A stretch of 35,571 bases of DNA from Rhodothermales bacterium (GTDB lineage: Bacteria; Bacteroidota; Rhodothermia; Rhodothermales; BA12). The stretch covers positions 1 to 35,571 of the forward strand of contig JACSSA010000077.1 of the NCBI GenBank assembly GCA_014879465.1, given 5' to 3'. This document shows positions 9,099 to 26,184 of the stretch, piece by piece. The notes beneath the pieces were generated by a model. It was not told where the DNA came from and made no database searches. It was given only the letters and a program-made list of their open reading frames with translations. The stretch's first letter is position 1. The number at the start of each line of letters is the position of its first letter. The position numbers and the translations under genes were made by a program.

Positions 9099-10016
9099 AT
9101 GACGTTTGTCCTTCCGCTTGCCCACGGCCGTGCGCCGCTCAACGCCACACCGATGACCGTCGCGCCCGGCGGGCCGCTCGTCCGCGTTGGCGCTCTCGTC
9201 ATGGGGATTCTCAACCTCACGCCCGATTCGTTCTCCGACGGCGGCCAACTGGTCACGGTGGACGACGTGCTCCGCCGCGCCGAGCAGATGCTCGAAGACG
9301 GCGCGGCGATGCTCGATCTCGGCGGCGAGTCCACCCGTCCGCGCGGCACGGCCTACGGCGCGGGCGCGGCGGCGGTAGACGTGGACGAAGAGATCCGGCG
9401 CGTCGTCCCAGCGGTCGAGGCCATCGTGCAGCGGTTTCCAGAGGCGATCCTGTCGGTGGACACCTACAAGCCCGCCGTGGCTCGCGCCGCGTTGGAGGCC
9501 GGGGCGCACCTCGTCAACGACGTGACCGGGCTGCGGCTCTTTCCGGAGATGGCCGCCGTGTGCGCCGCCGCCGGGGCGTCCGTGATCGCGATGCACTCAA
9601 CCGGCGTGCCGGGGCAGATGCCGCATGTGGCTCCGGCCAGCGACATCGTGCAGACCGTCGGCGACGCGCTCGAAGCCGCCGTGGCCGCTGCCGAGGCGGC
9701 GGGCGTGCCGGGCGTGGCCGTCGATCCGGGCTTTGGCTTCGGCAAGACGCCCGACGACAACCTCCGGCTCATCCAAGCCACGCGTTCGTTCGTCGAGCGC
9801 TTTCGGCGGCCCGTCGTCGTAGCCGTCTCGCGCAAAGCGACGGTGGGCATCGTGCTCGGATCGTCCGATGCGCCTGCGCCGGTGGACGAACGGCTGTTCG
9901 GCAGCGTCGGCCTCGCGCTCGCCGCCGTGGCGGGCGGCGCGTCCATCGTCCGCACCCACGACGTCCGCCCCACCGTCGAGGCGCTCCGGGCGTTCGCGGC
10001 AGGCTGGGGCGGATGA
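9099..10016 (+). CDS. folP: Dihydropteroate synthase
   Basis: MGILNLTPDSFSDGG ... DLGGESTRPRG ... VNDVTG ... MHSTG motifs. The start could alternatively be the internal M at 9153 or 9201. Confidence 0.85.
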   Translation: MTFVLPLAHGRAPLNATPMTVAPGGPLVRVGALVMGILNLTPDSFSDGGQLVTVDDVLRRAEQMLEDGAAMLDLGGESTRPRGTAYGAGAAAVDVDEEIRRVVPAVEAIVQRFPEAILSVDTYKPAVARAALEAGAHLVNDVTGLRLFPEMAAVCAAAGASVIAMHSTGVPGQMPHVAPASDIVQTVGDALEAAVAAAEAAGVPGVAVDPGFGFGKTPDDNLRLIQATRSFVERFRRPVVVAVSRKATVGIVLGSSDAPAPVDERLFGSVGLALAAVAGGASIVRTHDVRPTVEALRAFAAGWGG

Positions 10017-10050
10017 GACCTATCTTGCCCTGTCTTTCTTACGCCCGGTT

Positions 10051-10854
10051 TTGGACGCGCTTCGCTGGCTGCTCGCTCAGGTTCGGATCCTCGACGTGGT
10101 CGAGGTGGCGTTCGTGGCGTGGCTGCTCTACCGCCTCTACCGGCTGATGCAGGGCACCATCGCCGTGCAGATCTTCTTCGGCATCCTCGCGCTGCTCGGC
10201 ATTCAGGCCATCGTGACGGCCCTTGACCTGACGATCCTCAGCGCCTTCTTCGATGCCTTCTCCAGCATCTTCGCCATCGCGCTCGTCATCCTGTTCCAAC
10301 CCGAACTGCGGCGGCTGCTGCTGATCGTCGGGCAAAACCCGCTCATCCGGCGCATTGTCTCGAACGTGCAAGCGAGCCGCACCGACACCGTCGACCTGCT
10401 CGCCGACGCGACGCTGACGATGGCGCGCAAGCGGATGGGGGCGCTGATTGCCGTGGAGCGCACCGCCGGGCTTCGGCAGTACATCGAAACCGGCACGCGC
10501 CTCAACGCCCACCTCGACGCCGACCTGCTCGTCACCATCTTCTACGGCCAAAACCCGCTCCACGACGGTGCGGTGATTGTGCGTGGCGACGTGATCGAGG
10601 CCGCCCGCTGCATCTTGCCCGTGACCCAGCAAGACCTCGATCCGCATCTTGGCCTGCGCCACCGTGCGGCCGTAGGCCTGACCGAACAAACCGATGCCGT
10701 ATGCCTCGTGGTGTCGGAAGAAACCGGTGCGGTGTCGGTGGCGGTCGGCGGTGTGCTCACACGATTTTCCGGCGGCGACGGCTTTCGTCGGTATTTGGGC
10801 GATGTGATGGGCACACGGCTTGAACCGGCGGAAACGGTGGCGGTTGAAGGGTAA
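10051..10854 (+). CDS. cdaA: Diadenylate cyclase (c-di-AMP synthase), three N-terminal TM helices plus a DAC/DisA_N domain
   Basis: DAC-domain motifs GALIAVERTAGL, GQNPLHDGAVIVRGD and RHRAAVGLTEQTDAVCLVVSEETGAVSVA. There is no in-frame ATG. TTG 10051 is proposed by alignment to the CdaA N-terminus (RILDVVEVAFVAWLLYRLYRLMQGTIAVQ). The start is uncertain by a few codons. Confidence 0.75.
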   Translation: MDALRWLLAQVRILDVVEVAFVAWLLYRLYRLMQGTIAVQIFFGILALLGIQAIVTALDLTILSAFFDAFSSIFAIALVILFQPELRRLLLIVGQNPLIRRIVSNVQASRTDTVDLLADATLTMARKRMGALIAVERTAGLRQYIETGTRLNAHLDADLLVTIFYGQNPLHDGAVIVRGDVIEAARCILPVTQQDLDPHLGLRHRAAVGLTEQTDAVCLVVSEETGAVSVAVGGVLTRFSGGDGFRRYLGDVMGTRLEPAETVAVEG

Positions 10855-10928
10855 AGCGGAGCTGCCGGCTTCGGCCGGTTGTGCGTTCAGCCCTCGGCCT
10901 TCTCTTTATCTCTTTTCTTGCCTTCCCG

Positions 10929-11603
10929 ATGCTTGCTCGCCTGGCGCTTCCCGACGAACGCGGCTACGACCGCCGCCGCGCGGCCCTCGTGGAGGCCCTG
11001 CGCACGAAGGGCATCGTGGACGAACGGGTGCTGGACGCCGTTCATCGTGTTCCGCGCCACCTGTTCGTCTGGGACAGTCAGCGCCACCTCGCCTACCACG
11101 ACGTCGCGCTGCCCATCGGCCACGGCCAGACGATCTCGCAGCCGTTCACGGTGGCCGTCCAAACGGCGCTGCTCGACCTTGCGCCCGGCGACCGCGTGCT
11201 GGAAATCGGCACCGGCAGCGGCTACCAAGCCGCCGTGCTCGCCGAACTCGGCGCGCGCGTCTACTCGGTAGAACGCCACGCCGACCTGCTCGCCCCCACC
11301 GAGGCGCTGCTTCAAACCCTCGGCTACCGCATCAAAACGAAGGCCGGCGACGGCTCGCTCGGCTGGCCCGAATACGCGCCCTTCGACGCCATCGTCGTCA
11401 CCGCCGGAGCCGTCGGCATTCCCGATGCTCTGCGCCGCCAGCTCGTCACGCCCATCTCGGGCGTCCGGCGGGGCGGGCGGCTCGTCATTCCCGTCGGCGA
11501 CGCCAGCGGCCAGACGATGCGTCGGCTCGTTCGTACCGGTGCGGATACCTTCGACGACGAAGCCTACGGCGATTTTCGTTTCGTGCCGTTTGTGCAAGGG
11601 TAG
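10929..11603 (+). CDS. pcm: Protein-L-isoaspartate O-methyltransferase
   Basis: VPRHLFV ... LPIGHGQTISQPFTVA ... VLEIGTGSGYQAAVLAEL are PIMT motifs. ATG at 10929. An upstream in-frame GTG at 10881 is possible. Confidence 0.85.
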   Translation: MLARLALPDERGYDRRRAALVEALRTKGIVDERVLDAVHRVPRHLFVWDSQRHLAYHDVALPIGHGQTISQPFTVAVQTALLDLAPGDRVLEIGTGSGYQAAVLAELGARVYSVERHADLLAPTEALLQTLGYRIKTKAGDGSLGWPEYAPFDAIVVTAGAVGIPDALRRQLVTPISGVRRGGRLVIPVGDASGQTMRRLVRTGADTFDDEAYGDFRFVPFVQG

Positions 11604-11668
11604 GCGACAGGCACGGGCGAAACTCCCTCCCGAGGCTTTTCGTACGCCCCACGCGTTACCGCCTGTCT

Positions 11669-12367
11669 ATGAAACGCCTACGTCCGGTCGGTGCGCCGCG
11701 CACGCTGTTTGTCGCTACCCTTGGTGGCCTGCTTGCAGGTATGGCCCTTCCCGCCTGCCGCCCATCTGAACCCGCGCTCTCCGACGAAAAGGGCATTCGA
11801 ACCGTCGTGACCGAGGTGGAGCCGGGGCGCTATGTGATCGAAGACGAGCAGGTGGTGGATACGCTCACGTCGGTGGTGGTGCGCAACCTCGACGGCACCA
11901 CGCGTCGCATCGACGACCCCGCTCAGTTTGCCTCGTTGCTCGCTCCGCCCGACAGCATCGCCGCGTTTCAGGTCCGCGCTGCGGCAGATTCCATGCGCGG
12001 CGGCGGCGCGTCGTGGGATGCGCCGCCCGCCACCGACGAGCAGGCTCGCTCGGGCCACACGGTGCACCGGGGCGGGATGCCGCTGGGAACGTTGCTCTTC
12101 TACACCCTCGCCATGAACGCGTGGCGGCCTGCCGTCTACCGTCCCATGGCCGGATACAGCGCTCCGCTGGTTGCCTACCGCTCCGGGGCCGTCCGCGACG
12201 AATCCCGCAGCAGCGGCTCGGTCTACGCGTCGTACGTCCGGTCGGGGCGTGCGGCAGGCGGCTACGACGATGCCGTCGCGCGGTCGTCGGCGCGGTCTCG
12301 CGCCAACCGTCCGTCGGGCGGTCGCTCCGGCTACGGTCGCTCCACATGGGGCCGTGGAGGCGGCTAA
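11669..12367 (+). CDS. Hypothetical lipoprotein with a Gly/Arg/Ser-rich C-terminal tail; possibly YgiB/YjfM (DUF1190)-like
   Basis: MKRLRPVGAPRTLFVATLGGLLAGMALPAC is signal plus lipobox. Codon usage is genome-like (high GC3). The C-terminus is GRSGYGRSTWGRGGG. The resemblance to the E. coli ygiB product (a lipoprotein encoded upstream of the ygiC GspS homologue) is from memory only, through an internal MAGY-containing hydrophobic segment, and is not verified. Confidence 0.5.
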   Translation: MKRLRPVGAPRTLFVATLGGLLAGMALPACRPSEPALSDEKGIRTVVTEVEPGRYVIEDEQVVDTLTSVVVRNLDGTTRRIDDPAQFASLLAPPDSIAAFQVRAAADSMRGGGASWDAPPATDEQARSGHTVHRGGMPLGTLLFYTLAMNAWRPAVYRPMAGYSAPLVAYRSGAVRDESRSSGSVYASYVRSGRAAGGYDDAVARSSARSRANRPSGGRSGYGRSTWGRGGG

Positions 12368-12371
12368 CGGT

Positions 12372-12593
12372 ATGCTCGATAGCGTCGGCCTTCTAAGCGT
12401 TTCGGTGTGGGCGGACGTGCAGGCGCGGTGGCCGGAGATGGCCGCTGCCGCCGAGGCGCAGGAAGCGGTTTTTCCTGCCGGAAGCTGCGACGCTGCCCGC
12501 GCTGCCGCCGTCGAACGTCTCGTCCAAACCTTTCCCAGCCTGTCCGTAGCTGCTGCCCGTCACGTCGTGGCGCTCGTGTCGGCGGCGGCGTAA
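12372..12593 (+). CDS. Small Ala-rich hypothetical protein (73 aa), 32 nt upstream of the ATP-grasp gene; coding status uncertain
   Basis: ATG at 12372 lies 5 nt after the lipoprotein stop. Product ends ...LVSAAA. GC3 is ~74%, lower than neighbouring genes at ~85-90%, so it may be non-coding. Confidence 0.22.
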   Translation: MLDSVGLLSVSVWADVQARWPEMAAAAEAQEAVFPAGSCDAARAAAVERLVQTFPSLSVAAARHVVALVSAAA

Positions 12594-12625
12594 CAGGGTG
12601 CCCGCCGGTCTTCCTTTCTGTTCCT

Positions 12626-13810
12626 GTGATCCCCGCTCCGATTCAGCTGCGCGACCTCTGGCCGCTTGCCCCCGACCATCTCGACGCCGCCGGGTGGGGC
12701 TGGCTCTACCGCGAAGCCGGGGCCGGGTACGTCGCGCCCGAGGCCGTTCGCGTGCGCGAAGAGGACGCCGATGCTCTGGCCGAGGCCGCCGACGTGCTCT
12801 ACGACCTGCTCGTGGAAACGCTCAACGACGTGATCGCCGCCGACCGTCTTGCCGCGCTCGGCCTGCCCGAACGCATCCACCGCCTCGTGCGCCACACGTG
12901 GGAAGACGACCGCCACTGGCATGTGCTCTCCCGCTTCGACCTCTCGGGCGGCCTCGACGCGACCGCGCCCAAGCTGCTCGAACTCAACGCCGACACGCCG
13001 ACGATGCTGCCGGAAACGTCCATCGTCCAATGGGCGCTCTTGAAGGCCAACCGCCTCGACGAGGCGGCGCAGTTCAACCTCGTCTACGAACGGCTCGTGG
13101 ACGCCCTGCGCCACTGGCGCGGCCTCTGGCCCGATCACGCCCCGCATCTCGCCGCCGTCTACGCCGCCGCCTCCGACGAAGACGCCGCCAACGCGCAGGT
13201 GGTGGCCGAAGCCGCCCGCGAAGCCGGGTTCACCGTCGCCCACGCCCTTCCCATTGATGCGCTCACCGTCTCGCCCGGCGAGGGCGTGTTTGTCGAACAC
13301 GACGGCGCGTGGACCCGCCTCGATTTCGTCTACAAGTTTGTCCCGTGGGAATGGATCGTGGACGACGAGCCGGAACTGTTCGGCCTGCTCGAAGCGCTAA
13401 TCCTTGATGACCTTGTGACCGTGGCCAACCCGCCGTATGCGCTGGCGCTGCAATCCAAGGCGCTCCTCGCCGACGCGTGGGAACGGATGCCCGGCCACCC
13501 GTACCTGCTGGAGGCCCATCGCACGCCGTTTGCCTCGCCCGAAGGCACGGTGGAAAAGGTGATTCTGGGGCGCGAAGGGGCCAACGTGCGCATCATCGCC
13601 CCCGACGGGCAGGTGCTTGCGGATGTCGACGGCACCTACGCCGATCAGCCGCGCATCTGGCAGGCCTACCATCCGCTCCCGCAGGACGCGCAGGGCCGGT
13701 CCTACCAAGCGGGCGTGTTCTTCTCCGGCGAAGCGTCGGGGTTGGGCATTCGGCGCGGCAGCCTCGTGCTCGACAACGGCGCCGAGTTCGTGGCCCATCT
13801 TGTGGAGTAA
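12626..13810 (+). CDS. Glutathionylspermidine synthetase-like ATP-grasp ligase (YgiC/YjfC-type, synthetase domain only, no CHAP amidase)
   Basis: GTG start at 12626, ~394 aa. Motifs LELNADTPT, DFVYKFVPWEWI, ANPPYALALQSKALLA, REGANVRI and QAYHPLP are characteristic of the GspS pre-ATP-grasp/ATP-grasp family (PF03738-like). Recognised by motif, not by search. Confidence 0.75.
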   Translation: MIPAPIQLRDLWPLAPDHLDAAGWGWLYREAGAGYVAPEAVRVREEDADALAEAADVLYDLLVETLNDVIAADRLAALGLPERIHRLVRHTWEDDRHWHVLSRFDLSGGLDATAPKLLELNADTPTMLPETSIVQWALLKANRLDEAAQFNLVYERLVDALRHWRGLWPDHAPHLAAVYAAASDEDAANAQVVAEAAREAGFTVAHALPIDALTVSPGEGVFVEHDGAWTRLDFVYKFVPWEWIVDDEPELFGLLEALILDDLVTVANPPYALALQSKALLADAWERMPGHPYLLEAHRTPFASPEGTVEKVILGREGANVRIIAPDGQVLADVDGTYADQPRIWQAYHPLPQDAQGRSYQAGVFFSGEASGLGIRRGSLVLDNGAEFVAHLVE

Positions 13811-13872
13811 GTTGGAGGCGGGCGCTCGGCCTGCCGCCGTCGCCCGTTGCTCTCCGCCCGTCCCCCTCTGCT

Positions 13873-14520
13873 ATGCTCACGCTCTACTGGGTTGCGTTCC
13901 TCGTTGGCGGTACGCTCGTTGCCCTCTCGCTCTTTGGCGGCCACGATGCTTCCGGGGGCGACGCCGGCTTTGACGCAGGGGGGCACGATGTGGCGCACGA
14001 CGCGCCGGCGGTGCTCGTGGACGGCGGCGAAGTTGAGGCCGAGGGCGTCGGGTTCTCGGACGTGCTGTCGCTGCGGTTTGTTTTCCTCTTCGCCGCCTTC
14101 TTCGGCCTCACCGGGCTGCTGATGCGGTTTGCCGCAGGCGTGGTGGAGCCGCTCGCCGGGGTAATCGCGCTCGTGATGGGCGTGCTCATCGGGCTGTTCG
14201 GCAACGTGTTCATCCGGCGCGTGGGGCAGGCCGAGGTGTCGAGCGCGGCGCAGCAGACGGACTTCGAGGGGAAGACGGCGCGGGTGGTGCTGCCGTTCGG
14301 CGGGGCCGACCGCGGCTCGATCACGCTCGTCTCCAAAGGCCAGCGGTATGTGCTTCCCGCCCGCGCCTTCGGCGGCGTCGAGCGCTACGACCGGGGCGAG
14401 GATGTGGTGGTGGTGCGCCTCGACGGACGCGTGGCCGAGGTGCTGCGCGTGGGCGGCTCACCGGCGGACGACGAGACGCTGCCGACGTCCGCGCCGCCGG
14501 CCCGTCTGGTGTCGGCCTGA
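13873..14520 (+). CDS. NfeD-like membrane protein (short form: N-terminal TM helices plus C-terminal OB-fold), YqiJ/YuaF-like
   Basis: Hydrophobic N-terminus LYWVAFLVGGTLVALSLFG, a second hydrophobic block, and a C-terminal beta-rich segment GKTARVVLPFGGADRGSITLVSKGQRYVLPARA typical of the NfeD OB-fold. It sits immediately upstream of a flotillin gene, the canonical NfeD-SPFH pairing. Confidence 0.7.
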   Translation: MLTLYWVAFLVGGTLVALSLFGGHDASGGDAGFDAGGHDVAHDAPAVLVDGGEVEAEGVGFSDVLSLRFVFLFAAFFGLTGLLMRFAAGVVEPLAGVIALVMGVLIGLFGNVFIRRVGQAEVSSAAQQTDFEGKTARVVLPFGGADRGSITLVSKGQRYVLPARAFGGVERYDRGEDVVVVRLDGRVAEVLRVGGSPADDETLPTSAPPARLVSA

Positions 14521-14626
14521 GGCACGGGTTCGGGCGCGTGGCGCGGCGCGGGCGATCCGCCGAAGCGGTTCTTCCGGGCGGTTCTGCCGGGGCGTCGTAT
14601 CTTGCTTCATTCGACCTTCGCGCGCT

Positions 14627-15922
14627 ATGCCCGTCCTCATCCTCGCGGCCATTATCCTGCTGGCCATCTTCGTCGTGCTCGGCCTCATCAAGGCCAATTT
14701 GCATGTGGCCGCGCCCAACGAGGTGCTCATCTTCTCCGGCAAGAAGCGGACGCTCCCCGACGGCTCGTCGGTCGGCTACCGCGTCATCAAAGGCGGACGA
14801 GGCTTCCGCATTCCGATCATCGAACGGGTGGATCGGCTCGACCTCACGACCGTCCCGATTGACCTGACGGTGTCCAACGCCTATTCCAAGGGCGGCATCC
14901 CGCTGCAAGTCCGCGCCATCGCCAACGTGAAGGTGGCGGCGACCGAGCCGGAGCTGAACAACGCGGTGGAGCGGCTGCTCGGCAAGAGCCGCGAGGAGGT
15001 GATGATGATCGCCAAGGAGACGCTGGAGGGCAACCTGCGCGGCGTGCTGGCGCTGCTCACGCCCGAAGAGGTGAACGAAGACCGCCTCAAGTTCGCCAAG
15101 GAACTGCTCGAAGAGGCCGACCAAGACCTCTCCGCCCTCGGCCTGCACCTCGACACGCTCAAGATCCAGTCGATGGACGACGACCGGGGCTACCTCAACG
15201 CCATCGGGCGGCAGCAGACGGCGCAGGTCATCGCCGCCGCCGAGGTCGTGGAGGCCGAGCGGATGGAGCAGGCGCGGACGGCGCAAGCCCGGGCCAACAA
15301 GGCCATCGCCGAGGCCGAAAACGAGGTGCGCATCACCAAGGCACAGCTTTCTGCCCAGTCGGAGTCGGCCGAGGCGCGGGCGTCGGTGGCGGCGCAGCTC
15401 GCGCAGGCCGAAGCCGAGCAAGCGCTGGCCGAACAGCAGATCGCCCTTGCCGAAAAACGGCAACGCGCCGACATCGTGGTGCGTGCCGAAGCCGAGCGTG
15501 TGGCGTCGGAGGAGCGGGCCAAGGGCGAGGCGGCCCGGGTGTACGAGCAGGGCAAGGCGGAGGTCGAGATTCTGCGGCAGAAACTGACGCTGTGGCAGGA
15601 CGCCGGCCCGGAAGCCGAGCGCCTCTTCCTCCTGCAGATGCTGCCCGACATCATGCGCGAGGTGCTCAAGACCGTGGAGGGCGTCAAGATCGACAAGCTG
15701 ACCGTGGTGGACAGCGGCTCCGGCACGGGGGGCGTTCCGGCGGTGCTGCACCAGATTGCCGGGGCCACGCCCGCGCTGCTCGAAAGCCTGAAAGCCTCGA
15801 CGGGCATCGACGTGGCGGCGCTGCTCCAAGGCCGGGCCATGCCGCCCTCGGCAGAACGCGGGCTGGCCGATACGCCCGTGGTGGTGGTGAAGAAGGACGA
15901 CGCCCCGCCCAAGCTGAAATGA
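14627..15922 (+). CDS. Flotillin-like SPFH/band-7 protein (YqiK/FloT-like)
   Basis: N-terminal TM MPVLILAAIILLAIFVVLGLI. SPFH domain PNEVLIFSGKK...RVIKGGRGFRIPIIERVDRLDLTTVPIDL. Long Ala/Glu/Gln-rich coiled-coil flotillin region (EAENEVRITKAQLSAQSESAEARASVAAQLAQAEAEQALAEQQIALAEKRQRADIV). Confidence 0.85.
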   Translation: MPVLILAAIILLAIFVVLGLIKANLHVAAPNEVLIFSGKKRTLPDGSSVGYRVIKGGRGFRIPIIERVDRLDLTTVPIDLTVSNAYSKGGIPLQVRAIANVKVAATEPELNNAVERLLGKSREEVMMIAKETLEGNLRGVLALLTPEEVNEDRLKFAKELLEEADQDLSALGLHLDTLKIQSMDDDRGYLNAIGRQQTAQVIAAAEVVEAERMEQARTAQARANKAIAEAENEVRITKAQLSAQSESAEARASVAAQLAQAEAEQALAEQQIALAEKRQRADIVVRAEAERVASEERAKGEAARVYEQGKAEVEILRQKLTLWQDAGPEAERLFLLQMLPDIMREVLKTVEGVKIDKLTVVDSGSGTGGVPAVLHQIAGATPALLESLKASTGIDVAALLQGRAMPPSAERGLADTPVVVVKKDDAPPKLK

Positions 15923-16566
15923 TAGGGCTTGGGACCTTGTGCTGCCGCAGCAGCCTTTTGCTCGCCGCCGTCGGGATGGCCGCGTGCCGCCCGCACGCCC
16001 GCACGCCGCCCGACCCGGTGGATCCGGACACGATCTGGAGCCGGGCGGAGGATTTCGCGCCCTACCTGCACCCGCGCCCCTCCGACTCGTCGCGCATCGA
16101 CACGGCGTGGGGGTGGACCCTCAGCCCCATCATTACCCCCGCTCCAACGCCGCCTCCACGCGCCGTCCTGCGCGAGGTCCGAACCTTCACCTTCGACGGG
16201 TTCGACCGCACCGTCTTCGAATACACCTTCGGCGACCCTGTGCCCGGCGTGTTCGCGAGCTACCGTGCTGCGCCGCGCCGCTGCTCCGACGCCGTGCCTG
16301 CAGACGTGCGGGCCACGGACACGCTGGTCGTGGTTGCCACCACCGCCCAGCAGTTCGATCCGGACAACGCCGCGCGCTCCTCGGTGCTCTTCACCGACCG
16401 CAGCGTGGACGCGCCCGCGCTGCGGAGCGTGATCATGGGGTGCGGGGGCGTGACCAACCAAGTGGCGTGGGCGCTCGGCGTGGACGGGCGTCAGCCGTTC
16501 CGCGTGTTCACGCTCGAAGATCCCGTGCGCGTGGTTGTGGACGTGCGCCATCCTCGTCAACCGTAG
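15919..16566 (+). CDS. Hypothetical lipoprotein, Pro-rich N-terminal region, C-terminal beta domain (AMIN/GerMN-like end motif FRVFTLEDPVRVVVDV)
   Basis: The ATG overlaps the flotillin stop (ATGA at 15919-15922). The signal LLLAAVGMAAC is a lipobox. The domain assignment is an inference from the C-terminal motif only. Confidence 0.55.
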   Translation: MIGLGTLCCRSSLLLAAVGMAACRPHARTPPDPVDPDTIWSRAEDFAPYLHPRPSDSSRIDTAWGWTLSPIITPAPTPPPRAVLREVRTFTFDGFDRTVFEYTFGDPVPGVFASYRAAPRRCSDAVPADVRATDTLVVVATTAQQFDPDNAARSSVLFTDRSVDAPALRSVIMGCGGVTNQVAWALGVDGRQPFRVFTLEDPVRVVVDVRHPRQP

Positions 16567-17623: not shown

Positions 17624-18106
17624 ATGGCCGACGAACCCGCCTTCTCGCACCCGACCCGCACCTACGAACGCGACGGTATGCGCGTGCTTTGGGAGCCGCG
17701 TCTGTGCATCCACTCCGGACGGTGCGTGCAGGCGCTTCCCGACGTGTTCAAGCCGAAGGACAAGCCGTGGGTGCAGCTGGAAAACGCCCCGAGCAACGAC
17801 GCCGTGGCCGACGCCGTGCACCGCTGCCCGACCGGGGCGCTGCGCTACGAACGCACCGACGGCGGCGAGCCGGAGGCCGAACGGATGCCCGAGCCGCCGT
17901 TTGCCGTGCCCTACAAAGACGGGCCGCTGCTCGTGCGCGGCGTCGTGGAGGTGCGCGGCCCCGACGGCGAGATCCAGCGCCGGGTGGAGCGGGTGGCGTT
18001 CTGCCGCTGCGGCGCGTCGGAGAACAAGCCGTACTGCGACGGCTCGCACCGCAAGGCCGGTTTCAAAGCCGACGGCATCACGGGCGTGCCGAAAGACCTC
18101 GGCTAA
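17624..18106 (+). CDS. Iron-sulfur protein: N-terminal divergent 4Fe-4S mono-cluster domain fused to a C-terminal CDGSH (mitoNEET-type) domain
   Basis: N-terminal RVLWEPRLCIHSGRCVQALPDVF...AVHRCPTGAL (Fer4_13-like). C-terminal CRCGASENKPYCDGSH (CDGSH motif). Confidence 0.75.
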   Translation: MADEPAFSHPTRTYERDGMRVLWEPRLCIHSGRCVQALPDVFKPKDKPWVQLENAPSNDAVADAVHRCPTGALRYERTDGGEPEAERMPEPPFAVPYKDGPLLVRGVVEVRGPDGEIQRRVERVAFCRCGASENKPYCDGSHRKAGFKADGITGVPKDLG

Positions 18107-19719
18107 GAGGCCGGCGGGGCGATGCCGCAGCCTCGGTAGAGCTGGTCGGCCCCGGCTTCGCTGCCCGGAGCCACCACCGCCGTAATCCGCACGAACGGGT
18201 CGAGGCGCGTGGACGCTGTCGGCACGAACGTGCGCGCGCCGTCGGTGATGCGCAGGAGGATAACGCCCGGCGGCAGGCCCAGTTCGGCGACGGTCTTGCC
18301 CGCGAACGGCGCGTGCGGCTGCACGTCGAGTTCGAGGATCGTCGGTTCGCGCAGGCCCTCGGAGAGGGCACCCTTGCCGAGGTCACGCTCCAGCAGCGAC
18401 TCGTAGATCGGAGCCGCGCCCAGCCCTTCGGCCACCCCGAAGGCGAAGAAGCCGCTCACCAGCAGCGGCAGCATCTGCCCGTAGTTGCCCGTCATCTCCA
18501 AGATGAGCACGATGCCCGTGAGCGGAGCGCGGACGATGGCGGTGAAGAGCGCACCCATCCCCACAACGGCGTAGACGCCCGGTTGCGGCACGAGGCCGGG
18601 GGCGATCTGCTGCGCGACCAGCCCGACGGCCAGCCCGATGAGCGCACCCAAGACGAGCAGCGGCGCGAAGATGCCGCCCGGTGCGCCCGTGCCGTAGGAG
18701 GCGAGCGTGAGCGCAAACCGGCCCATCAGCCACAACGGCACGGCGGCGAGCGCCACCTGACCGAGCAAGACCTCTTCGGCGAGGCGGTGCCCGTTGCCCA
18801 CCGCCAGCGGCGCGAACAGCGCCACCGCGCCCACCACCGCGCCCACAAGCGCCGCCAGCCCCACCGGGTGCTTCGCCTTCCCAAACCATCCGGACACGCG
18901 CAGCAGCGACCGATTGTAGACCGCGCCGAACAGACCGGCCAAGACGCCGACGACCACGAAAAACGGCAGCGCCTCCAGCGGCGGCGGCGGGTAGGACGGG
19001 ACGGTGAAGACGGGGAACGGCCCCGACAGGAACCGGGAGACGACGTTGGCCGCCGCTGCCGCCACGAATGCCGCGCCGAAGACGATGGGCCGGAAGTCGC
19101 GCTGGACTTCTTCGAGCACGAACACGAGGCCCGATAGCGGCGCGTTGAAGGCTGCCGCGAGGCCCGCGCCCGCGCCCGCCGCCGTGAGCGTGAGGCGTTC
19201 GCGGGGCGGGCTGCCCATCCGCCGCGCCACCTCGTCGCCCACCGCGCCGCCCATCTGCACCGTCGGGCCTTCGCGCCCCAGCACCAACCCGCCACCGATG
19301 GCGAGCACGCCGCCCACGAGCTTCACCGCGAGCAGGCGCATCGCCCGCATTGGGCGGAGCCGCAGCAGCACGGCCTTGAGATTGGGGATGCCGCTGCCCG
19401 CCGCCTCCGGCGCGAACCGCCGCACCAGCCAAACGGCCAGCGCCGCCGTGGCCGCCATCGTCGCGACCGGCGCGAGCCGCAGCAGCCCGTCGTGCGCGTG
19501 GCTCCACACCAGCAGCGCGTCGAGCGCGTTGCCCGCCCCGGTTAGCAGCATCCGAAACACCGACGCAAGCAGCCCCGAAAGTGCGCCCACGAGCGCCGCC
19601 CGCGGGTACATCCGCCGCCGCTGCCGCGCCACGTCGAGGTAATCGTCCAGCTCCGACCGCCGGTTGCGCAGCGTTCGCAATCGCACAAGGCGCAGATACC
19701 GTTCGGGCGTGAGGGCCAC
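18103..19719 (-). CDS. ClC-family chloride channel / H+-Cl- antiporter with C-terminal TrkA-C (RCK_C) domain
   Basis: GREGPTVQMG (GxEGP selectivity motif), GGIFAPLLVLGA (GxFxP), ~10-12 TM helices, C-terminal LELDVQPHAPFAGKTVAELGLPPGVILLRITDG (TrkA-C). GTG start at 19719. Overlaps the CDGSH gene by 4 nt (convergent). Confidence 0.85.
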   Translation of the reverse strand: MALTPERYLRLVRLRTLRNRRSELDDYLDVARQRRRMYPRAALVGALSGLLASVFRMLLTGAGNALDALLVWSHAHDGLLRLAPVATMAATAALAVWLVRRFAPEAAGSGIPNLKAVLLRLRPMRAMRLLAVKLVGGVLAIGGGLVLGREGPTVQMGGAVGDEVARRMGSPPRERLTLTAAGAGAGLAAAFNAPLSGLVFVLEEVQRDFRPIVFGAAFVAAAAANVVSRFLSGPFPVFTVPSYPPPPLEALPFFVVVGVLAGLFGAVYNRSLLRVSGWFGKAKHPVGLAALVGAVVGAVALFAPLAVGNGHRLAEEVLLGQVALAAVPLWLMGRFALTLASYGTGAPGGIFAPLLVLGALIGLAVGLVAQQIAPGLVPQPGVYAVVGMGALFTAIVRAPLTGIVLILEMTGNYGQMLPLLVSGFFAFGVAEGLGAAPIYESLLERDLGKGALSEGLREPTILELDVQPHAPFAGKTVAELGLPPGVILLRITDGARTFVPTASTRLDPFVRITAVVAPGSEAGADQLYRGCGIAPPAS

Positions 19720-23609: not shown

Positions 23610-23712
23610 TCTGTCAACCTTCGGCGAAGGATAGACACACGCCGTCGAAGTCCGTATCTTGACCGTCCTGCCCGACCGGGGGCAGGCGCTTCCCTGTGAA
23701 GCGATTCCCTTT

Positions 23713-23786
<74 letters not shown>

Positions 23787-23792
23787 CCCTTA

Positions 23793-23828
23793 ACGGCTCG
23801 TCTGCATGGTCAGGCGGGCCGTTTTGTT
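23793..23828 (+). terminator. Putative intrinsic terminator after tRNA-Pro: imperfect stem (ACGGC..CTG/CAG..GCCGT) followed by TTTTGTTTG
   Basis: Stem-loop plus U-tract read from the sequence. Confidence 0.4.
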
Positions 23829-24035
23829 TGCGACGGATTCTCCGTTCGGAAGACGGCGCTTCGGGATGGAGCAGGCAGAGCGTGGCTACGCTGCGCCCGT
23901 CGCAATGGCCGATCAGGGCCGAAACGGCGAAGGCGGGACGGGTGGTGCGTCTACGGCATCGTCGAGAGGCCGGCCGGCGGCGCATGTTCAACGTGCGCGC
24001 GGTTTCTGCGCGGTGGCCCAACCGACTCCGTCGTG

Positions 24036-24086
24036 CCCAAAAGCAAAGACGCCCCGCTCGCCGAAGCGACGCGGAGCGTCTTGGGG
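24036..24086 (-). terminator. Intrinsic terminator after tRNA-Leu on the minus strand: ~14-bp imperfect stem (AAGACGCTCCGCGTCGC / GCGAGCGGGGCGTCTT) with UUCG tetraloop, followed by TTTGCTTTTGGG
   Basis: Read from the reverse complement of 24036-24086. Confidence 0.5.
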
Positions 24087-24170
24087 TGCCCGGGACTGGA
24101 CTCGAACCAGCACGCGATTGCTCGCACCACCCCCTCAAGATGGCGTGTCTACCAATTTCACCACCCGGGC
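24087..24170 (-). tRNA. tRNA-Leu (anticodon GAG), class II with long variable arm
   Basis: The reverse complement gives GCCCGGG-TG-GTGAAATTGGTAGACAC-G-CCATC-TTGAGGG-GGTGG-[TGCGAGCAATCGCGT]-GCTGGTTCGAGTCCAGT-CCCGGGC-A. Confidence 0.85.
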
Positions 24171-24186
24171 AGAAGTCAGTCAATCT

Positions 24187-24262
24187 TGGTGATCCCGGCA
24201 GGGCTCGAACCTGCGACCCGCTGATTAAAAGTCAGCTGCTCTGCCAACTGAGCTACAGGATC
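24187..24262 (-). tRNA. tRNA-Lys (anticodon TTT), 3' CCA encoded
   Basis: The reverse complement gives GATCCTG-TA-GCTCAGTTGGCAGAGC-A-GCTGA-CTTTTAA-TCAGC-GGGTC-GCAGGTTCGAGCCCTGC-CGGGATC-A-CCA. Confidence 0.85.
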
Positions 24263-24743: not shown

Positions 24744-25151
24744 ATGCATGCTCTTGGACGCCAGATCTTGGTCGAGTTCTACGACTGCGACCGCGACATT
24801 CTCACGCAAGGCGATGCCGTGCGCGACCTGATGATGGAGGCCACGCGCCAGTCCGGCGCGACCATCGTCACCGACACGTTCCACTCCTTCTCGCCCCACG
24901 GCGTCTCGGGAGTGATCGTGATCGCGGAAAGCCACGTCGCCATCCACACATGGCCCGAATACGGCTATGCCGCCGTGGACATCTTCACCTGCGGCGACAC
25001 CATCAACCCGTGGACGATCCAGAAGCACCTCGAAGAGGGCTTTTCGTCTCAGCGGGTCTCGTCGATGGAAATGCGCCGCGGCCTCTTCCCCGACGCCGTG
25101 CCGCACAAGCCGGTCGGGTTCGACATCGGGGCCGACCCGGTGCTCAACTGA
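24744..25151 (+). CDS. speH: S-adenosylmethionine decarboxylase proenzyme (small bacterial pyruvoyl-dependent type)
   Basis: HALGRQILVEFYDCD ... VIVIAESHVAIHTWPEYGYAAVDIFTCG, with an ES self-cleavage site. 135 aa. GGAGGG lies 8 nt upstream. Confidence 0.85.
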   Translation: MHALGRQILVEFYDCDRDILTQGDAVRDLMMEATRQSGATIVTDTFHSFSPHGVSGVIVIAESHVAIHTWPEYGYAAVDIFTCGDTINPWTIQKHLEEGFSSQRVSSMEMRRGLFPDAVPHKPVGFDIGADPVLN

Positions 25152-25308: not shown

Positions 25309-26184
25309 ATGTCTGCCGAAGCCAAAACGTCGCTCTTTCAGTTCACCGAGTTCTGGGATGGGCGCTCCGGCATCTCGTTCGGCGTCGAAGGGTTGTTGAT
25401 GAGCGAAGAGAGCGAGTTCCAGCGCGTCGAGGTCGTCAAAACCGATGTGTTCGGCAACCTGATGCTGCTCGACGGCCTCGTGATGCTTACCGAGCGCGAC
25501 GAGTTCGTCTACCACGAGATGATCGCCCACCCGGCGCTCGGCCTCCACCCCAACCCCAAGCGCGTGCTCGTGATTGGCGGCGGCGACGGCGGCACCGTGC
25601 GCGAGGTCGTGAAGCACGGCTCGGTCGAACACGTCGATCTGGTTGAAATCGACGGTCTCGTCGTGGAGGCGTCGAAGCGGCACTTTCCGACCGTGGCCAG
25701 CGCCTTCGACCACCCGAAGTTGGGCTTGAAGATCGAAGACGGTCTGGCGTTCGTGAAAAACGCTGCGCCGGGATCGTACGACGTGATCCTCGTGGATTCC
25801 ACCGACCCGGTCGGTTTTGCCGAAGGCTTGTTCGGGCGCGCATTCTACGAGGACTGCGTCCGGGCGCTCGGCCCCGACGGCATCCTCGTCTCCCAGACCG
25901 AAAGCCCGTTCGACGAGCGGTTTCAGAGCCAGATTCAGGCTGCGCACCGCACGCTCGGCACGCTCTTTCCGCATGTGGCGCTCTACCTCGCCAGCATCCC
26001 GACGTATCCGATGGGCACATGGAGCTTCGTGATGGCCTCGAAGACGCGCCGCCCGGCGGAGGATTTCGACGAGGCCGAGGCCGAACGGCGGCTTGCACCC
26101 TTCGCCGACGGGTTGAAGTATTACCGTGCTCCGCTTCACCGCGCGGCCTTCACGCTTCCGGCCTTTGTGAACCGCCTGTTCTAA
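25309..26184 (+). CDS. speE: Spermidine synthase (aminopropyltransferase)
   Basis: FQRVEVVKTDVFGNLMLLDG ... YHEMIAHP ... KRVLVIGGGDGGTVREV ... DVILVDSTDPVG ... GILVSQTESPF. Full-length PABS fold. Confidence 0.85.
   Translation: MSAEAKTSLFQFTEFWDGRSGISFGVEGLLMSEESEFQRVEVVKTDVFGNLMLLDGLVMLTERDEFVYHEMIAHPALGLHPNPKRVLVIGGGDGGTVREVVKHGSVEHVDLVEIDGLVVEASKRHFPTVASAFDHPKLGLKIEDGLAFVKNAAPGSYDVILVDSTDPVGFAEGLFGRAFYEDCVRALGPDGILVSQTESPFDERFQSQIQAAHRTLGTLFPHVALYLASIPTYPMGTWSFVMASKTRRPAEDFDEAEAERRLAPFADGLKYYRAPLHRAAFTLPAFVNRLF

Follow-up and report, generated by a model that had tools for sequence, protein, structure and literature searches.

Two adjacent gene pairs in a Rhodothermales genome, one for a UPF0323 lipoprotein and a YgiC/YjfC-type ligase, the other for an NfeD-like protein and a flotillin

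We analyzed a stretch of DNA of 35,571 nucleotides (the whole stretch is referred to below as the window), which is a 69% GC contig (JACSSA010000077.1) from a metagenome-assembled genome of a Rhodothermales bacterium. The subject of this study is a cluster of six co-directional open reading frames (ORFs) at positions 11669 to 16566, all on the plus strand: a UPF0323-family lipoprotein (lipoprotein 1), a small Ala-rich ORF, a GSP_synth-family ATP-grasp ligase, an NfeD-like protein, a flotillin and an AMIN-like lipoprotein (lipoprotein 2). An initial annotation of the same DNA had interpreted these six genes as a possible single envelope-associated system, in which the ligase would act on a lipoprotein or peptide within a flotillin scaffold. 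We found all six genes at the positions and on the strand where that annotation had placed them, and its gene identifications are essentially right, the ligase and the flotillin being matched by the hidden Markov models (HMMs) of PF03738 and Band_7. All coordinates are collected in Table 1.

Gene content of the cluster

The gaps between the first five genes measure 4, 32, 62 and 106 nt, and the flotillin and lipoprotein 2 genes overlap by 4 nt (ATGA); thus, the gaps are short, as the initial annotation had said, and its range of 5-107 nt was off by one. The overlap, which that annotation had described as translational coupling, holds if lipoprotein 2 starts at the ATG at 15919, and disappears with the start given by NCBI (TTG at 15958, 202 aa), which leaves a gap of 35 nt; the ATG start provides a fuller signal peptide in addition to the overlap with the flotillin stop codon. 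The GC content of third codon positions is 0.72 in the small ORF and 0.79-0.90 in the other five genes. A scan of the intergenic gaps of the cluster found no terminator-like hairpin, and Rfam, repeat and promoter scans of the cluster returned nothing relevant.

The ligase matches GSP_synth (PF03738) over residues 18-393 of 394 (E = 9e-90, 301.9 bits, cutoff 29.3), and a domain search of the protein found neither an amidase nor any second domain, i.e., the enzyme is synthetase-only. For the Gss equivalog model NF007801, the cutoff is 882 bits and the ligase reaches 77.5, in a match that covers the synthetase part alone; therefore, the ligase is not a canonical bifunctional Gss, in agreement with the initial annotation. 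The best matches among PDB structures are E. coli YgiC (7uk8, E = 4e-31) and YjfC (7uk6, E = 2.5e-27), while the structures of Gss and trypanothione synthetase are much weaker matches, at about 1e-13 to 1e-12 (Gss 9.5e-13). In an alignment with Gss, YgiC and YjfC, the equivalents of Gss residues R316, D318, E330, E391, K498, K533, R538 and R598 are kept (R103, D105, E119, E185, K278, K311, R316 and R376 in the ligase numbering). One of these, Gss Glu391, which corresponds to E185, is key to spermidine binding (PMC6272389). The motifs NADTPT and GREGAN have the YgiC/YjfC forms, whereas Gss has NADSAS and GRCGSN; furthermore, D387 and D389 of Gss are replaced by Ala, and C338 by Met. A hydrophobicity scan of the ligase found no signal peptide, transmembrane (TM) segment or other hydrophobic segment, and the protein is therefore predicted to be cytoplasmic. 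Judged from its sequence, it is a YgiC/YjfC-type GSP_synth ATP-grasp amide ligase.

By predicted activity, the protein is probably a peptide-polyamine ligase. In the reaction of Gss, the Gly carboxylate of glutathione is converted to an acyl-phosphate, which is then attacked by N1 of spermidine (PMC6272389). According to PMC11762307, YgiC and YjfC ligate spermidine to peptide carboxylates in vitro (Pederick et al. 2023, Biochemistry 62:899), and their physiological substrate is described there as still unknown. The statement of the initial annotation that these homologues have no demonstrated substrate is therefore outdated: this activity has been on record since 2023, and RefSeq names both YgiC and YjfC accordingly as peptide--spermidine ligase.

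The source annotations name the protein "glutathionylspermidine synthase family protein", and another explanation would be that it is an ordinary glutathionylspermidine (Gsp) synthetase for redox protection and that the flanking genes are irrelevant. The name itself, the Glu391 equivalent E185, and the presence of speH and speE in the window are consistent with such a role. However, the low NF007801 score, the amidase domain that was looked for and not found, the much greater closeness to YgiC/YjfC than to Gss, the NADTPT and REGAN motifs, and the replacement of D387, D389 and C338 all argue for a different activity. In addition, YgiC and YjfC are without Gsp synthetase activity (Sui et al. 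2012, as cited in PMC12506659 and PMC11762307). We consider this explanation very improbable.

The NfeD-like protein has three hydrophobic segments and an acidic/His-rich loop, and its C-terminal part is beta-rich. A Pfam search gave no match for the window protein itself, and seven of nine orthologues match PF01957 below threshold (best E = 3.8e-4); one more weak signal, to NfeD_TM, comes from the orthologue at L093 (L numbers are our handles for the compared loci). In profile searches, the family gave a weak match to 3cp0, a structure of NfeD (E = 0.28), and one of 16.8 bits to E. coli YqiJ over residues 20-190, i.e., nearly the full length. The AlphaFold2 model from the single sequence is poor (pLDDT, the predicted local distance difference test, of 54), and its Foldseek comparison with PDB gave noise, with E above 3. 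The gene is located directly 5' of the flotillin gene in seven of nine loci (the window, L004, L006, L092, L094, L095 and L098). It should be noted that a DUF3667 gene sits between the two genes in L093 (5964-6875) and L099 (5329-6231). By its profile matches, the protein, the "short NfeD" of the initial annotation, is probably a YqiJ/YuaF-like protein with three TM segments and a weak NfeD signal.

The flotillin matches Band_7 (E = 8e-24, 85.1 bits, cutoff 23.6) and has an N-terminal anchor at residues 3-21 (Kyte-Doolittle hydropathy, KD, of 3.46) and a Glu/Ala-rich coiled-coil region in its C-terminal part. Its scores fall short of the cutoffs of the Flot model PF15975 (18 bits, cutoff 27) and of the FloT model NF058507 (192 bits, cutoff 700). 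We therefore class the protein as a member of the flotillin family and not as a FloT equivalog; the NCBI name is "flotillin family protein". Among the best 120 matches, identity to the window flotillin is 68-98%, and those named by organism are all from Rhodothermales. The last gene, lipoprotein 2, matches the AMIN-like family PF24837 over residues 83-211 (E = 7e-19, 68.7 bits, cutoff 27).

Table 1. Positions of the genes of the cluster and of neighbouring features in the window
Feature	Position	Strand	Remarks
folP, cdaA, pcm			upstream neighbours of the cluster
Lipoprotein 1 (UPF0323-family)	11669-12367	+	232 aa
Arg/Ser/Gly tail of lipoprotein 1	12290-12367	+	coding region of the tail
Small Ala-rich ORF	12372-12593	+	73 aa
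Ligase (YgiC/YjfC-type GSP_synth)	12626-13810	+	394 aa, GTG start; identical to NCBI call P0001
NfeD-like protein	13873-14520	+	215 aa
Flotillin	14627-15922	+	431 aa
Lipoprotein 2 (AMIN-like)	15919-16566	+	215 aa from ATG
Mpo1-like and DNA-alkylation-repair genes			downstream neighbours of the cluster
Fer4_19/CDGSH gene	17624-18106		downstream neighbour; Fer4_19 and CDGSH fused in one iron-sulfur protein, convergent with the ClC channel gene
ClC channel with TrkA_C	18103-19719	-	downstream of the cluster
iPGM, HhH-GPD glycosylase		-	downstream of the cluster
Lnb-like membrane protein			further downstream, before the tRNAs
tRNA-Pro(CGG)	within 23712-24262	+	between the Lnb-like gene and speH
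tRNA-Leu(GAG), tRNA-Lys(TTT)	within 23712-24262	-	between the Lnb-like gene and speH
speH	24744-25151		AdoMet_dc, E = 3e-40
speE	25309-26184

Conservation on the ligase side and on the flotillin side

Using an alignment of ligase homologues, we scanned one genome per species and obtained 80 loci with 10-kb flanks and ligases 39-48% identical to that of the window; among them are five from Campylobacterota and one from a Rhodothermales genome, besides those of Cytophagales, Chitinophagales and Saprospiraceae. Of 87 ligase loci in all, 73 have a gene matched by an HMM of the lipoprotein 1 family; they belong to Rhodothermota, Bacteroidota and Campylobacterota (in the last phylum L071, L073, L077, L083 and L087). 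The gene lies at most 400 nt upstream of the ligase gene on the same strand in 61 of the 73 loci, farther upstream on the same strand in 10, and downstream in two; the HMM gave no match in the remaining 14 loci, in two of which the contig breaks off shortly before the ligase gene. The lipoprotein-ligase pair is, on this comparison of sequences, deeply conserved and near-obligate. The link between the two genes that the initial annotation had drawn is thus borne out in three phyla, with a parallel in ygiB-ygiC and yjfM-yjfC of E. coli.

A tblastn search with the window flotillin and NfeD-like proteins found neither gene within 10 kb of the ligase in any of the 80 loci (0/80). Nor was either gene found near the ligase in L001, L002 and L003, the first of which has a ligase 63% identical to that of the window and the order lipoprotein-ligase-ferritin. 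A second tblastn search, with E. coli YqiJ, YqiK, YjfI-M and YgiB, gave no match in any locus, flotillin loci included; this test is too insensitive. Among the loci with ligases 60-64% identical to that of the window (L001, L004/L005, L006 and L007), L006 has the window order, which continues through the Mpo1-like and CDGSH genes; L004/L005 have the order ligase-lipoprotein paralogue-NfeD-flotillin; and L007 has folP-cdaA-pcm-lipoprotein-ligase, after which the contig ends.

The same comparison was made from the flotillin side. L098 (flotillin 89% identical) has the ligase and the window order, including the 73-aa ORF and the AMIN-like gene. In five other Rhodothermales loci, with flotillins 72-83% identical, the NfeD-flotillin pair is present and the ligase is not: L092 (83%) has the order lipoprotein paralogue-NfeD-flotillin, with no ligase within 7 kb; L093 (78%) has folP-cdaA-pcm, followed farther on by NfeD-DUF3667-flotillin; L099 (78%) has NfeD-DUF3667-flotillin; and L094 and L095 (both 72%) have NfeD-flotillin alone. 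Adjacency of ligase and flotillin was found only in the window, L088/L089, L098, L006 and L004/L005, in which the ligases are 60-96% identical. The folP-cdaA-pcm genes adjoin the ligase pair in L007 and L098, as well as the flotillin pair without the ligase in L093; housekeeping neighbours are therefore as "linked" to either module as the flotillin is to the ligase. An adjacency confined to a shallow clade, together with folP-cdaA-pcm beside either module, is the pattern expected of inherited gene order. We also note that the folP-cdaA-pcm synteny spans 1890-8263 in L093, 4414-9209 in L007, 2011-8299 in L098 and 8001-15986 in L001, and that L001 has folP, cdaA and pcm in inverted orientation, some 4.5 kb past the ligase.

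We therefore favor, as a fairly probable interpretation, a locus made of two independent, separately conserved two-gene modules, whose proximity in one Rhodothermales clade reflects inherited synteny. The two modules can be represented as follows: (i) module 1, the UPF0323 lipoprotein and the ligase, in which the cytoplasmic enzyme would activate the C-terminal carboxylate of a peptide or protein as an acyl-phosphate, the activated carboxylate would be amidated with a polyamine, and the product or target would serve an envelope function together with the lipoprotein; (ii) module 2, the YqiJ/YuaF-like NfeD protein and the flotillin, a widespread membrane-scaffold pair, accompanied here by a strain-variable AMIN-like lipoprotein. 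The polyamine of module 1 could be spermidine; the organism is able to make it, because SpeH and SpeE are encoded.

Several observations weigh against two independent modules. The tblastn search with the window proteins could miss distant SPFH types, such as stomatin and HflK/C, so that the count of 0/80 is to be read with this limit. The adjacency outlasts a local rearrangement in L004/L005, where the upstream context differs. In L092, a paralogue of the lipoprotein lies directly 5' of NfeD-flotillin with no ligase nearby, which hints at a real lipoprotein-flotillin connection in Rhodothermales. No terminator was seen between the modules, which may be co-transcribed. Finally, Ravi et al. 2024 (PMC11237479) describe, for other phyla, operons in which GspS-like ligase and DUF1190 genes adjoin a PspA or a Band-7 gene; a recurring ligase-scaffold link therefore exists elsewhere.

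The last four of these observations lend support to the view that all six genes are one envelope system, in which flotillin/NfeD organises the ligase and the polyamine is put on the lipoprotein tail or on the small peptide. Its further support comes from the tight co-directional spacing, from the retention of the window arrangement in L098 and L006, and from an RSGF/YG...GG tail that is present on ligase-adjacent lipoproteins and missing from two flotillin-adjacent paralogues. On the other side are the count of 0/80 outside the clade, the five Rhodothermales flotillin loci that lack the ligase, the ferritin gene downstream of a ligase as close as that of L001, the deletion of lipoprotein 2 in near-identical strains, the absence of the small ORF from L001, L006 and L007, and the location of the ligase, which is cytoplasmic, while all segments of mature lipoprotein 1 stay below a KD of 1.6. 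We regard a single system as unlikely. With respect to the initial annotation, its link between lipoprotein and ligase is strongly supported (73/87); the flotillin link is weakly supported, since the adjacency occurs in one small Rhodothermales group and the ligase is found elsewhere without flotillin or NfeD, an outcome that this annotation had itself named as refuting its interpretation.

The two remaining genes of the cluster belong to neither pair. The 73-aa ORF is annotated by NCBI, and it has a counterpart of equal length in L098 (4484-4705), with 69% amino acid identity. The two sequences differ by 15, 14 and 32 nucleotides in the first, second and third codon positions, respectively (chi-square about 10, p about 0.006), and because of this third-position bias the ORF is probably coding. 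A family search gave no match for it, and it has one homologous cluster among 1.84 billion protein representatives. No such ORF is present in L001, L006 and L007, where the gap between lipoprotein and ligase is just 3-118 nt and leaves no room for it. The ORF is thus probably a genuine gene, with a distribution limited to roughly one genus, and it lies outside the conserved lipoprotein-ligase pair.

Its position 32 nt 5' of the ligase gene and the apparent coding constraint would fit yet another explanation, in which the ORF encodes a ribosomal peptide substrate of the ATP-grasp enzyme, the two forming a pair similar to those of ribosomally synthesized and post-translationally modified peptides. 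However, outside the window species the ORF was seen in L098 alone, at least 70 other loci have the ligase-lipoprotein pair without it, and its C-terminus varies (SAAA vs SAPEA). GSP_synth enzymes are not known to be ATP-grasp enzymes of the graspetide type. Such a pair is extremely improbable here.

The lipoprotein 2 gene follows the flotillin gene in L006 and L098, and is absent from this position in L004, L092-L095 and L099. In L088 and L089, which come from strains 98% identical to the window, it is deleted, with about 60 nt of its 3' end left; lipoprotein 2 is therefore not an essential component, and it is a strain-variable accessory gene. A metagenome scan with the flotillin returned contigs of the same species only and serves for strain comparison, not for breadth. 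The segment 15891-16577 of the window corresponds to 9265-9410 in L088/L089 (686 nt vs 145 nt), and the C-terminus of the flotillin differs as well. Across 9099-15890 of the window, divergence from L088/L089 is 0.3-1.1% in folP, cdaA, pcm and lipoprotein 1, and 2.2-4.6% in the ligase, NfeD-like and flotillin genes, which suggests a recombination tract from near 12.6 kb to the lipoprotein 2 indel.

Concerning the surroundings of the cluster (Table 1), a CDGSH gene is found downstream in L006 too. The polyamine genes speH-speE, which the initial annotation had placed about 11 kb downstream, are at this distance from the ligase, and 8.2 kb past the end of the cluster; the interval contains eight unrelated genes, some of them on the opposite strand, and three tRNAs. 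They carry no operon-type link to the cluster.

The C-terminal tail of the ligase-adjacent lipoproteins

Lipoprotein 1 begins with a probable signal peptide, whose hydrophobic segment (residues 12-30) ends in LPAC, with a Cys that is invariant in the family alignment; the Pro at position -2 is atypical of a classical lipobox. The N-domain of the mature part (about residues 40-92) is small, acidic and beta-rich; it is followed by a central Gly-rich hydrophobic patch, PLGTLLFYTLAMNAW, and an Arg/Ser/Gly tail, which ends ...GGRSGYGRSTWGRGGG. An AlphaFold2 model from a six-sequence alignment has a pLDDT of 45, with moderate confidence at residues 42-91 only and the rest modelled as disordered. The protein is, by sequence relationship, a member of UPF0323 (PF26303). 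This assignment is indirect: PF26303 is precomputed for P0122 and P0274, which are 98% and 72% identical to lipoprotein 1, and it is also found on the lipoproteins adjoining the ligase in L002, L003, L007 and L098, with which lipoprotein 1 aligns throughout; the Pfam copy used here matched not even these proteins and is apparently without the model. Pfam gave no DUF1190 match for lipoprotein 1, and neither YgiB nor YjfM exceeds about 4 bits with the family HMM.

The tail, RP.GGRSGF(F/G), is kept in the ligase-adjacent lipoproteins: 38 of the 73 end in GG, and 60 of the 73 in a pair of Gly/Ser residues. YgiB and YjfM carry a similar tail, and that of YjfM ends ...SRGGYGRSSSARGHWGG. We observed that a C-terminal motif R-S/G-G-F/Y-G/F...G-G-COOH is common to the UPF0323 and DUF1190 partners (the 73 loci; ygiB at L096 2245-2916; yjfM at L097 8388-9026). 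HMM comparison detected no sequence homology between these two kinds of partner lipoproteins, despite their similar tails. A tail common to two families without detected homology is what a functional tie between tail and ligase would predict. There is also a second UPF0323-like subfamily without the RSGF...GG tail, at L092 (5650-6213) and L004 (9297-10025, equal to L005 4011-4739); in L092 the gene of this paralogue is the one immediately 5' of NfeD-flotillin, and in L004/L005 it is flanked by the ligase and NfeD genes.

We considered whether the central patch could be a TM helix that places the tail in the cytoplasm; its hydropathy (family median KD of 0.82 over 17 residues) is too low, and none of the 19-residue windows of mature lipoprotein 1 reaches KD of 1.6. 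The charge asymmetry of the protein (-3 in the N-domain, about +9 in the tail) would suit an in/out topology. Direct modification of the lipoprotein thus meets a topology problem, because the ligase is cytoplasmic and the mature lipoprotein has no convincing TM segment.

The partner tail (RP.GGRSGF/YG...GG in UPF0323 proteins, RGGF/YG...GG in DUF1190 proteins) might be the physiological acceptor of YgiC/YjfC-type ligases, possibly in connection with the flotillin; candidate C-terminal peptides of ligase-cognate lipoproteins are ...SGYGRSTWGRGGG, ...SSRSMGG of YgiB and ...ARGHWGG of YjfM. The carboxylate of the terminal Gly would be amidated with spermidine, as Gss does with the Gly of glutathione, and the product would be a polyamine-capped envelope protein. 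The modified lipoprotein, or the tail-less paralogue, would then work with the NfeD-flotillin scaffold in this Rhodothermales clade. We consider this speculative interpretation distinctly unlikely.

The locus establishes no new system; its comparison with other loci yields two leads, the common Gly-Gly tail and the tail-less paralogue with NfeD-flotillin. Both the YgiC/YjfC-type ligases and their lipoproteins are conserved in bacteria as different as E. coli, Helicobacter, Campylobacter, Bacteroidota and Rhodothermota. If either link is functional, polyamine conjugation would be tied to envelope or membrane-scaffold biology; if neither is, the cluster is ordinary synteny.

Comparison with known systems

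Among the papers listed in a literature search, none combined flotillin, NfeD and glutathionylspermidine. We compared the locus with four groups of known systems. The first group includes ygiB-ygiC and yjfM-yjfC of E. coli, in which, as in the window, a lipoprotein gene lies immediately 5' of a gene for a synthetase-only GSP_synth ligase. YgiC and YjfC align with the window ligase end to end and have NADTPT and REGxN in common with it, although identity is low. YgiB and YjfM resemble lipoprotein 1 in having a lipobox, which is putative in lipoprotein 1, a small N-domain, a Gly/Met-rich hydrophobic patch and a Ser/Thr/Arg/Gly tail, the YjfM tail being similar to that of lipoprotein 1 at its end as well; however, homology of the N-domains was not detected (HMM about 4 bits). 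The neighbours also differ: ygiBC is in the tolC operon, and yjfMC is located beside the PspA homologue yjfJ and yjfI, yjfK and yjfL, whereas the window has the NfeD-like and flotillin genes.

The second group is that of the UPF0323/GspS-like pairs of Bacteroidota and Campylobacterota, which have the lipoprotein family and gene order of the window, and differ from it in that flotillin/NfeD were not found at those loci. We take C. jejuni Cj0371 to be a UPF0323 protein, and Cj0372 is presumably the ligase. Cj0371 has been tied experimentally to chemotaxis and virulence (PMC4944492, PMC6104132), a result that is not transferable to the organism studied here. The lipoprotein-ligase module is a further UPF0323/GspS-like pair and a counterpart of ygiBC and yjfMC.

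The third group, the PspA/Band-7 polyamine ATP-grasp operons (PMC11237479), is similar to the window in that a GspS-related ligase and a lipoprotein are found beside a membrane scaffold or remodelling protein; in one operon variant, a Band-7 protein takes the place of PspA (PMC11237479). In contrast, the window flotillin has its own NfeD partner, and AdoMetDC is 8 kb away and not in the operon. We looked in the cluster and its neighbours for CesT/Tir-PspA, YjfL/DUF350, DUF2491, K+ channel, Band-7-2TM-SHOCT and DUF1190 genes, and found none of these. The cluster therefore falls outside the definition of these operons.

The fourth group consists of yqiJ-yqiK of E. coli and yuaF-floT of B. subtilis. 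As in the window, the gene for a protein with three TM segments and a C-terminal beta domain, both predicted in the case of the window, is located directly 5' of the gene for an N-anchored Band_7/flotillin protein, and the abbreviated NfeD-flotillin operon is widespread (PMC11237479). The window pair is unlike these in its sub-threshold NfeD signal, in a FloT score below the cutoff, and in the AMIN-like lipoprotein that is added in some strains. The NfeD-flotillin module is a further pair of the yqiJK/yuaF-floT type.

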